17,436 nucleotides of DNA from positions 1 to 17,436 of IMG/VR virus record IMGVR_UViG_2778261136_000004. One strand, written 5' to 3'. This stretch comes from a virus. Its lineage: Duplodnaviria; Heunggongvirae; Uroviricota; Caudoviricetes. Below, piece by piece: positions 9,001 through 12,000 of the stretch (the first letter of the stretch is position 1; every line of letters starts with the position of its first letter). Position numbers: made by a program.

Positions 9001-12000
9001 CCAGTCACTAAGTGCCAAAATACTTGTTTTTTCTGGAATTGATGCAGAATTAAGCCATTTCCAGATCCCCGGTTCAGAGATATCAATGCCTCGCAGTTTC
9101 ATTGCATTCTGAATCCGCTTAGCCTGACCGCGTCCGCCCACGCCTGCATCTAATAATGCCTGTAGTAGTCTCTTTGAGAACGCTTCTTTTAGTTCATCTT
9201 TTTTAACCATACGTTAATTATCAAACATAGTTGACATAACTGTCAGCTAATAGTTAACATTAACTCGAAGTTAACTAAATTAATGGATAGCAGTATGAAT
9301 CCGATACAATTCGCAGTAAAAGCTGTTGGTGGTCAAACAGTCGCTGCCCGTTTATGCGGGTTGTCAAATGTTGCAATTCATAAGTGGGTTAAAAACGGAG
9401 CGTTACCTCGCACCGAATACACGATGAAAACCAACTATTCGGAAATTCTCGCCAATGCATCTGATGGCAAATTTACCGCCGAATGGTTACGCAATGTAGC
9501 GAATCCTGATCGTCAACGATAAGCTCAATTAACACTGCTCTTTTCACAATGGACATTCGTCCTACGTCGCTGAAAAGCGAGTCCCAAGATATCTGACCAA
9601 CTAAGGCCATATGCGTTTCCACGCATACCTTTCAACTAACTATTCACTATTTGGAATCATAAGAAATGTCACAAACAAGTTACAGCAAACTGTCGCAGCG
9701 CGATATCGATCGCGCTGAAACGGATTTACTTATCAACCTGTCAGCTCTGACGCAAAGGGGACTGGCGAAGATGATTGGCTGCCATGAATCGAAGGTCAGT
9801 CGTACCGACTGGCGATACATCGCGGCGATTTTATGTGCGTTCCAGATGGCATCTGATATCAGTCCGATCAGCCGGGCTTTCCAGCATGCCATTAACGTTC
9901 ATGCAAATAAAAAACGTCCGGTTGGGGCCGGACGTTCTGAGCAAATCCTGATGAATATCTGATATTCAGGCAGGGCATGGAGCAATACACGGGAATAATT
10001 CTGCCACATCTGGAAGAATTTCGCCAGCAACAACACCAACCGCAGCAGCCTGAAGCCGATTGGGTTAACCCGGAGATACCGGGACCGTCTGTGAAGATGT
10101 GCAGTCACACCAATGTGCAGTCACACCAACCGCAGCAGCCTGAAGCCGATTGGGTTAACCCGGGAGATACCGGGACCGTCTGCGGTATGGAGTAAATCTT
10201 GTATGCGAGGGGACTATGCGTAATTACGCAACAATTTCACCTCAGTTCTGGTTAGGCGATACAGGGCGAAAACTAAGGAAGTCTGGTCCGGAATGTATGG
10301 TAGTGGCGTTGTATATGATGACCTCGCCTCATTCCAATATGCTGGGCCTTTATTACCTGCCTGTTTTGTACATTGCTCACGAAACCGGACTTGATCCTGA
10401 AGGGGCTTCTAAGGGGCTTCAAATGGCTTGCGAGGCTGGTTTTTGCAGCTATGACCATGATTCTGAGGTTGTATGGGTGCATGAAATGGCAGCATGGCAG
10501 GTTGGTGAATCGCTGAAACCTGGCGATAACCGTTGTGCTGGGGTAAGAAATGAATATTCCGCGTTGCTGGAAAATCCTTTTTTATCATCATTTTATGATA
10601 GATATAAGGATGATTTCCACCTGGATGTCAGACGTGAATCATGTCGGAAAATTGAAGCCCCTTCAGAGCCCCTTTCAAGCCAAGAACAGGAACAGGAACA
10701 GGAACAGGAAAGAGATAAAACCCTTCTGGTCCATGGCGAAAAAATCGCCACGGACCCACTGGTGGATTCTTGTCCCGTTCTGACTGAACGTCCAGGACCA
10801 GCTGGCATGACACCGGAAGCAGATTCCGGGCGTTGTGTGCAGCAGGTGCTGCTCGTCGAACCGGAGCAACAACACCAACCGCAGCAGCCTGAAGCCGATT
10901 CCGCGATGAGCGGGAAGCCGATTGGGTTAACCCGGGCGATGCCGGGACCGTCTGCGGGACGAGTTGATTATCCTGACGTGTTCGAACGGGTCTGGCGTGA
11001 ATATCCGCATCGGGCAGGGTCAAACCCGAAGAAATCCGCGTTCAATGCCTGGAGGGCCAGATTACGCGAAGGGGTGTCACCGGATGTCGTGCTGGATGGC
11101 GTGAGGCGTTACGCAAGATACCTGGAGGCTACCGGGAAAGCGGGAACTGAATTTGTTCAGCAGGCATCGACGTTTTTTGGCCCGAACAGGAATTTCGAAA
11201 ATCCGTGGGCGCTGCCGAAGGCTGGCGCAGTCAGCCTGCGTTGCGTGAATCACATTTCTGAACCGGACACCGAAATTCCGCCGGGTTTCAGGGGGTAATC
11301 AGCCATGAAAAACATTTCGACAGGAGGGATTCTTGAACGGGTGCGCCGTCTGGCACCACCGCACGTGGCAGCACCGTTCCGGACGACCGACGAATGGCGG
11401 GAATGGCAACTGGCTGAGGGCCGGAAGCGCAGCGAGGAAGTTAACCGCCAGAATCACCAGACGCGGGTTGAAAAAATCCTGAATCGTTCGGGCATCCAGC
11501 CGCTTCACAGGAAGTGCTCATTCGGGAACTACCGGGTGCAGAACGACGGTCAGCGCCATGCTCTGAGTCAGGCAAAATCCATCGCGGCAGAACCTCTCTA
11601 AAGCGGACAAAACCAACCCCGTCAGTGTTGGATTTTTTATGCCTGTTATTCAGTGATAGCACAATGTGCTGTCACATCCCCGAACAATGTCGGGAGGGCG
11701 ACGAATACAACACCCGTAAGGGGAATAAGTCCGCGGTTCTTTAGGCCGTTCTGAACCTCCCGACACCACTATCAGAGGTGGTAATTTCAGAAAAAGCTAA
11801 AGGAGGTCGTTATGACCATGCAACTCGCTGTAGAATCCCTCGTCGTCGTTACTTACTCTAACGTCCCTGTAATAACAACAGGGTTATTGGCAAATCTATA
11901 CAAAACTGAAGAAAAACATATACGGCAGAACTTCAAACGTAATGAATGTCGTTTCATTGCAGGAAAACACTTCTTTAAAGTAAGTGGCTGTGAACTTGAT

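Follow-up and report, generated by a model that had tools for sequence, protein, structure and literature searches.

The stretch of DNA analysed here, called the window throughout, is the 17,436 nucleotides of IMG/VR virus record IMGVR_UViG_2778261136_000004 (positions 1 to 17,436), and represents the early region of a lambdoid prophage that converts its host to Shiga toxin (Stx) production. Its replication region is 98–99% identical to those of the Shigella phages POCJ13 and 75/02 Stx, the Escherichia phage phiSTEC1589-Stx1c and PhiR5_2. Two head-to-tail copies of a repeat of roughly 60 bp lie between cII and the gene of the replication initiator (rep), and a third copy lies inside rep. A preliminary description of the window had read these copies either as an iteron-like origin, by analogy with the linker of lambda O, or as a partial duplication of the gene. 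The genes and repeat features of this junction are as follows.

9666-9962: cII (Pfam Phage_CII)
9977-10195, plus strand: ORF72, an open reading frame (ORF) of 72 codons that overlies the upstream repeat array (PHROG 2751, function unassigned in PHROG)
10026-10094, plus strand: upstream copy 1, without the 23-nt segment and with a 1-nt deletion near the left palindrome arm (CCC-GGAGATACCGGG)
10097-10128, plus strand: 16-bp tandem duplication, ATGTGCAGTCACACCA x2, which makes up the spacer and the first part of copy 2
10116-10185, plus strand: upstream copy 2 (the terminal copy), whose CCCGGGAGATACCGGG is identical to a linker variant of another rep gene (L019)
10216-11298, plus strand: replication initiator gene rep (PHROG 1701)
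10865-10957, plus strand: internal copy, residues 217-247 of the initiator, in the predicted disordered linker
10901-10923, plus strand: additional 23-nt segment within the internal copy, made up of a GAAGCCGATT duplication plus 13 nt

The three copies resolve into a 36-nt repeat family (at 10026, 10116 and 10865; the first identical to the third, the second at 89%) and a 49-nt family (at 10046, 10137 and 10909; 92% identity between 10137 and 10909). Relative to nt 650-742 of rep, the upstream units are identical at 36/36 and 45/49 nt. The longest exact direct repeat of the window spans 41 nt (10033-10073 = 10123-10163), as compared to a mean of 13.3 and a maximum of 16 nt in 100 first-order Markov simulations. 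The three-copy repeat noticed in the preliminary description is thereby confirmed, with its limits redrawn as listed above. Likewise, the 23-bp partial duplication reported within the internal copy is present as the extra segment at 10901-10923, and a CCCGG-N5/6-CCGGG inverted element is found in every copy (10069-10083, 10159-10174 and 10931-10946). The tandem duplication of the spacer, previously given as 15 bp, has a unit of 16 bp (ATGTGCAGTCACACCA) repeated 2.1 times across 10097-10129, and the ...CAGTCACACCAAC within it matches the 'EQSHQ' linker variant of Tritos-type genes. A reading frame shared by all copies was also proposed; this holds for the first half (QQHQPQQPEAD, common to the three copies), while after GAAGCCGATT the frames diverge into WVNPEIPGPS, WVNPGDTGTVCG and KPIGLTRAMPGPSAG.

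The gene that contains the internal copy had been labelled O-like, a homology that our searches do not support. No Pfam family matched the initiator at E<=0.01, the lambda O family (Phage_rep_O) included, and end to end the protein is best assigned to PHROG 1701, 'DnaD-like helicase loader', with its halves also matching separate PHROGs. An AlphaFold model built with 31 homologues has a helical/winged N-terminal domain (N-domain) at residues ~7-135, a predicted local distance difference test score (pLDDT) below 50 at 145-249 and a confident C-terminal domain (C-domain) at ~250-335. The predicted layout is therefore that of a winged-helix-like N-domain, a disordered linker of ~100 residues and a DnaD-like C-domain. 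Naming of the N-domain fold was dropped, as Foldseek against the PDB returned only weak winged-helix (MarR-like) matches (E>=0.1); a weak, sub-threshold match to Pfam Phage_rep_org_N was seen for the Tritos-type N-domain only. A sequence search of the PDB matched the C-terminal tail alone, to DnaT. This tail, ...VNHISEPDTEIPPGFRG (11236-11295, the last ~20-25 residues; 2915-2974 in L022), resembles those of E. coli DnaT and of YdaU from the Rac prophage, which suggests a portable peptide contacting the loader or the helicase. YdaU is a DUF1376 protein otherwise unrelated to the initiator, and it too is followed by a DnaC-like gene; it was considered as a member of the initiator family and set aside, the last 20 residues alone being in common.

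We then placed the internal copy among its homologues. Linker DNA homologous to it is present in 2122 of 5426 complete E. coli genomes and is joined to at least three N-domains, namely the window type (also found in O157:H7 and DEF10), the Tritos/Evi type and the P0130 type (L016). Conversely, the N-domain of the window recurs at 53–63% identity in genes of Klebsiella and Acinetobacter phages, which do not have the whole linker segment. The 60-bp repeat thus does not co-vary with the N-domain. The linker is hypervariable, with insertions and deletions at GAAGCCGAT repeats, and these repeats occur behind unrelated N-domains. Window-type and Tritos-type linkers (10885-10960 versus 2560-2640 of L006) are homologous DNA, ~75-80% identical, but are separated by a compensated frameshift, such that they are read in different frames over ~60 nt or ~20 codons (KPIGLTRAMPGPSAG versus EADRVVPENTGQPVG). 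This frameshift implies that the peptide sequence of the linker is little constrained. We regard the internal copy as ordinary linker DNA belonging to the C-terminal module.

With flank identity of 99% or higher, the upstream array was found in 81 of the 5426 E. coli genomes (60 genomes listed), always between this cII and this rep gene; none of the genomes surveyed carries it 5' of another N-domain type. The window and most carriers have two units. A single unit is present in L009, L012 and ~7 of the 60 listed genomes (e.g. G6/7, 05-3629; ORF of 42 residues), while P0001 (strain TOE17) carries three 91-bp units, resulting in an ORF of 102 residues, and L010 (23CRST047, 23CRST049) carries three units of 113 bp, each with the 23-nt segment that is otherwise confined to the internal copy. 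Likewise, the three upstream copies of the L010/23CRST049 lineage all share a GAAGCC-to-GATGCC change with its internal copy, and these two shared features indicate sequence exchange between upstream and internal copies. Copy 2 contains variants typical of foreign linkers, QSHQ (Tritos) and GAGATA (L019). Recombination between an upstream and the internal copy is evident in L011 (SW071611 and relatives), where the N-domain and its iterons are lost and a frameshifted remnant is left. The prophages of O157, DEF10, L016 and L019 have the linker element and no upstream copy, and the palindrome arms are mutated in the first unit of L010, the second unit of 75/02 and in L016. Between the window and L010, substitutions amount to 1.4-4.3% in the array (positional orthologues), 3.7% in cII, 3.8% in the linker, 1.4% in the N-domain and 0.3% in the C-domain, rates that do not discriminate relaxed from strong constraint on the array.

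Overall, the units are arranged head to tail, differ in number among near-identical genomes and are homologous to the neighbouring gene, as is typical of a variable-number tandem repeat (VNTR). The preliminary description had proposed a copy-number comparison with related prophages, and this comparison gives 1, 2 or 3 upstream units in the 81 genomes. Its suggestion that the upstream pair are remnants of a duplicated 5' part of the gene is borne out as far as the origin in gene DNA is concerned; the source, however, is the linker in the middle of the gene, and the pair now belongs to a copy-number-variable array.

Elsewhere, rep contains a set of shorter repeats that are better candidates for the replication origin:

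10400-10420, plus strand: candidate iteron cluster 1, AAGGGGCTTC x2 with an 11-bp period, in the part encoding the N-domain
10550-10640, no strand assigned: AT-rich stretch (GC 0.30-0.32) between the clusters, candidate unwinding element
10654-10681, minus strand: candidate iteron cluster 2, in opposite orientation to cluster 1 and 254 bp downstream of it, with GAAGCCCCTT / AGAGCCCCTT and a partial unit
10684-10710: acidic coding repeat (GAACAG)4.5, directly after cluster 2

Two clusters with a 10-12-bp period, 232-260 bp apart, were present in every homologue examined (the window and L005, L008, L006, L013, L014, L016 and L020), the second lying just 5' of an acidic (GAnCAG)n repeat. The motif itself co-varies with the DNA-binding domain, four motif types being associated with four N-domain types: AAGGGGCTTC is shared with the O157, DEF10 and Klebsiella ST846 genes, whereas the Klebsiella ST13 gene has AAAGGGTTTCG, Tritos has GTCACG with a 10-bp period and L016 has GAAGCCTTT with a 12-bp period. 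An identical AAGGGGCTTC occupies the same two positions in Acinetobacter phage B1251, which has an N-domain of 62% identity and an unrelated C-terminal half. Depending on the gene, cluster 2 has the direct or the inverted orientation, hence the encoded peptide differs (EGASKGL versus EAPSEPL or QAPSKPL) and the DNA motif is kept. Repeats clustered at a helical period, DNA kept irrespective of the peptide and an adjacent AT-rich element are all hallmarks of an iteron origin, and the AAGGGGCTTC clusters flanking the AT-rich stretch (~10400-10680) are the most likely origin. Conservation at the DNA level together with domain specificity is as expected of initiator-binding iterons, from which we infer binding. 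In L009 (E. coli G6/7), the segment equivalent to 10665-10710 has gained one 11-bp iteron unit and two GAACAG units (23 bp), causing a frameshift in the initiator; the iteron cluster and the acidic repeat are thus themselves unstable in copy number.

The 60-bp repeat, on the other hand, is very probably not the replication origin. The array (10026-10185) contains no match to AAGGGGCTTC with one mismatch or fewer, and two-mismatch matches in the window are at chance level (18 found versus 14.5 expected). A lambda-type origin has at least three sites at a period of ~20 bp beside an AT-rich region, whereas the copies are 91 and 749-772 bp apart in DNA with a local GC content of 55-65%; a second initiator-bound region would carry the origin's own repeat, of which the array offers only matches of GAAGCCGATT at 8/10 positions. 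The analogy with the O linker is not supported, owing to this spacing and composition, to the lack of homology between the initiator and O, and to the better iterons located elsewhere in the gene. In addition, the internal copy follows the C-terminal module, whose three partner DNA-binding domains are unrelated or divergent and have an iteron of their own in each case. Replication of related phages without the repeats had been named as evidence that would speak against an origin, and phages with the same N-domain, including a propagated Acinetobacter phage, carry neither the internal nor the upstream copies. The 'unusual origin/replication-control architecture' put forward for this locus is therefore not established.

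Other roles in cis were also considered. A hairpin, single-strand initiation (ssi) or RNA-structure role was rejected after folding of the three units on both strands, which gave z values of -0.1 to -2.05 and a common structure consisting of a 5-bp stem only. No known RNA family was found in 9960-11000 at the Rfam gathering threshold. A consensus scan detected no promoter or terminator in the array, with site counts at shuffle level, and its sole match was a weak terminator-like hairpin at 10949-10961 with an unconvincing T-run.

We favour, with a probability of roughly 0.62, the explanation that the repeat is a partial duplication of initiator linker DNA which forms an unstable tandem array at a module junction, the origin being the AAGGGGCTTC clusters instead. 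The unit of ~70-93 bp would be linker-coding DNA of the initiator, of which a copy came to lie at the cII/oop-rep junction. The first copy possibly arrived by tandem duplication followed by internal deletion, or by illegitimate joining of the rep linker of another phage. From it a tandem array would then have developed, gaining and losing units and trading sequence with the internal copy, likely by slippage and by homologous recombination via the GAAGCCGATT microrepeats and the 16-bp duplication. DNA from the 3' end of cII to ~10010 can be aligned to lambda cII/oop/po, which places the array at the exact border of the cII-oop and rep modules, a typical site of recombination remnants in mosaic lambdoid genomes. 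Under this explanation the array would be dispensable for initiator specificity and its effects would be passive, comprising a small upstream ORF of variable length and frame, an altered spacing between cII/po and the ribosome-binding site of rep, and a direct-repeat substrate whose recombination removes the DNA-binding domain together with the candidate origin.

Several points weigh against this explanation. Between the window and Tritos linkers the CCCGG and CCGGG arms are kept, although the spacer has changed at 5/6 positions and the frame differs, which hints at a constraint at the DNA level, as seen in two independent lineages only. GAAGCCGATT equals the inverted iteron GAAGCCCCTT at 8/10 positions. 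The Acinetobacter phage B1251 has a third, genuine iteron cluster just 5' of the rep start codon, and upstream initiator sites do therefore occur in this initiator family. The two-copy allele is 100% identical in most listed carriers and in inducible phages such as PhiR5_2, an invariance that is as compatible with selection as with recent spread. Finally, the literature searched reports neither binding nor replication experiments on these phages, nor does it contain anything on their replication region or a description of this array.

Most of these points would be accommodated if the array and the internal copy were auxiliary cis sites, bound either by the initiator through the weak GAAGCCGATT likeness or by a dimeric host or phage protein through CCCGG-N5/6-CCGGG. 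Lying on either side of the origin, such sites would modulate initiation or the expression of rep, for example through looping, handcuffing or titration. The copies do flank the candidate origin, upstream and internal copies have changed in concert in L010, and lambda-type Stx phages need extra, weakly bound iterons for plasmid replication (PMC7466680). Nevertheless, we consider this unlikely. The array has no iteron match beyond chance, the linker element is also found behind N-domains with the unrelated iterons GTCACG and GAAGCCTTT, and it is missing from the phages with the same N-domain. Moreover, O157, DEF10, L016 and L019 retain the linker element with nothing upstream, and where an array exists its copy number varies freely from 1 to 3 with arms mutated in some copies. 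More improbable still is an extended version, in which the array and the linker copy constitute a second class of cis sites around the iteron origin and the copy number of the array tunes replication or Rep synthesis in Stx prophages. If true, the array would be a built-in control, able to mutate rapidly, of the copy number of the phage and thereby of the toxin gene.

A further alternative centers on ORF72, which could be a functional small gene, its product mimicking the Rep linker (QQHQPQQPEAD...) and competing for a partner, or a regulatory upstream ORF that couples Rep translation. All close relatives have it annotated, PHROG gives it a family of its own (2751), and its first 28 residues are kept in every variant. 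In two of three frames the stop codon adjoins the rep start (10193-10195 or 10222-10224), so that translation might end 20 nt short of the rep start codon or 6 nt past it, and the ORF variants of P0009, P0010 and L010 reproduce ~30 residues of the Rep linker in frame. Homologues of ORF72 nonetheless measure 42, 46, 51, 58, 62, 72, 76, 88 or 102 residues depending on the strain, the C-terminal two thirds shifting in length and among three frames in near-identical prophages. In L010 (23CRST049) a stop at codon 41 cuts the ORF short, and PGAP annotates no gene at this site. No homologue was found outside E. coli, the 10 E. coli clusters all being array variants, and there was no Pfam or NCBIfam match. 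The Shine-Dalgarno sequence is weak (AGG only), and the conserved 5' part overlaps the DNA alignable to lambda oop/po and could be conserved without coding. In frame, length and sequence, then, ORF72 does not behave as a conserved gene, and since its length and frame vary with array copy number a conserved protein is improbable; translation as an upstream ORF may nonetheless take place. We regard a functional role for ORF72 as marginally less probable than auxiliary cis sites.

The proposal that the linker repeats act as recombination handles, flanking a specificity cassette (ribosome-binding site, N-domain and iterons) and promoting its exchange or loss between lambdoid phages, is as improbable as copy-number tuning: the segment of N-domain and iterons lies exactly between the repeats, one C-terminal module is connected through one linker to at least three N-domain types, a real deletion between repeats has occurred in L011 and copy 2 carries the linker variants of other phages, but cassette exchange requires flank homology with the partner genome rather than an intragenomic repeat, the sole product observed is a dead gene, the array was never found 5' of a different N-domain type, and the observations are better taken as the history of the array than as its function.

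The preferred combination of a linker-derived array and a separate iteron origin can be compared with known systems. The lambda ori consists of four O-binding iterons and an AT-rich region within the O linker, and six iterons are present in the Stx phages 933W and P27 (PMC7466680). As in lambda, the candidate origin here probably falls within the initiator gene, where the DNA-binding domain gives way to the linker; the initiator has two domains and is followed by a helicase-loader gene, and the cII-oop context is homologous. In contrast to lambda, the initiator is not an O homologue, the fitting sites are 11-bp AAGGGGCTTC clusters and not the 60-bp repeat, and there are two opposed clusters ~254 bp apart instead of one array of four 18-bp dyad-symmetric sites. 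The 'replisome organizer' G38P of SPP1 has oriL inside gene 38 and a second bound region, oriR (PMC6316719). Similarly, the initiator gene of the window contains candidate direct-repeat sites of its own beside an AT-rich element. A precedent for a second initiator-bound repeat region is also found in P4, with ori plus crr. In both SPP1 and P4 the second region carries the repeats of the origin, whereas the array described here is linker DNA with no good iteron match. The closest parallel to the array is that of lambdoid VNTRs and partial duplications, with which it shares head-to-tail units in 1-3 copies, microhomology anchors, gene conversion with the source and deletion between copies. It differs from the usual lambdoid junction repeats in that the source is the disordered linker of an adjacent essential gene, and array and gene consequently form a direct repeat around the putative origin.

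The significance of the array itself is small, and the iteron architecture is a more useful lead than the 60-bp repeat. An initiator family that has no Pfam model and is common in enterobacterial and Acinetobacter prophages gains a clear and testable origin signature, namely two domain-specific 10-12-bp iteron clusters ~250 bp apart with an AT-rich stretch in between, preceding an acidic coding repeat. For these Stx phages, the signature also shows which fragment to clone as a mini-replicon. As for the array, it illustrates how a linker that is disordered and rich in repeats, in an essential phage gene, seeds an unstable junction array, which can in turn delete the DNA-binding half of the gene, and such repeat-mediated deletion of the N-domain is one concrete route of prophage decay. 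For the typing of Stx1/Stx2 prophages like POCJ13 and 75/02, among them a prophage of O104:H4 outbreak strains, the array might be a useful marker.

The remaining features of the window are as follows:

8440-9210, minus strand: cI-like repressor gene
9283-9522: cro-like gene
9911-9938, minus strand: oop-like intrinsic terminator in the 3' end of cII
11305-11601: DnaC-like loader gene, 98 codons, cut off early
14918-15874: stxA (RIP domain)

An oop-type antisense RNA would begin near 9990, under the start of ORF72, and no clear po promoter was found there (region 9900-10010) by the consensus scan. The loader gene is followed by ant, ninB, rusA, Q and stxA. Its 98 codons compare with ~246 in relatives, and relative to phage 75/02 Stx a segment of ~5.65 kb, from the 5' part of the loader gene to the ant region, has been swapped for 454 bp (11592-12045). 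The prophage of the window is thus probably without its own helicase loader and without several nin-region genes. In POCJ13 and PhiR5_2 the dnaC-like gene is intact. Inside the replacement segment, the Rfam family sRNA-Xcc1 is matched at 11689-11772 on the plus strand (75.7 bits versus a gathering score of 53), directly 5' of an antirepressor gene at 11812-12474 (ORF6N and P22_AR_C). The ORF next after stxA, at 15884-16153, is presumably stxB, and 3' of the Shiga toxin genes a strong Rfam match (195 bits) to the STnc100 sRNA is located at 16232-16445 on the plus strand.

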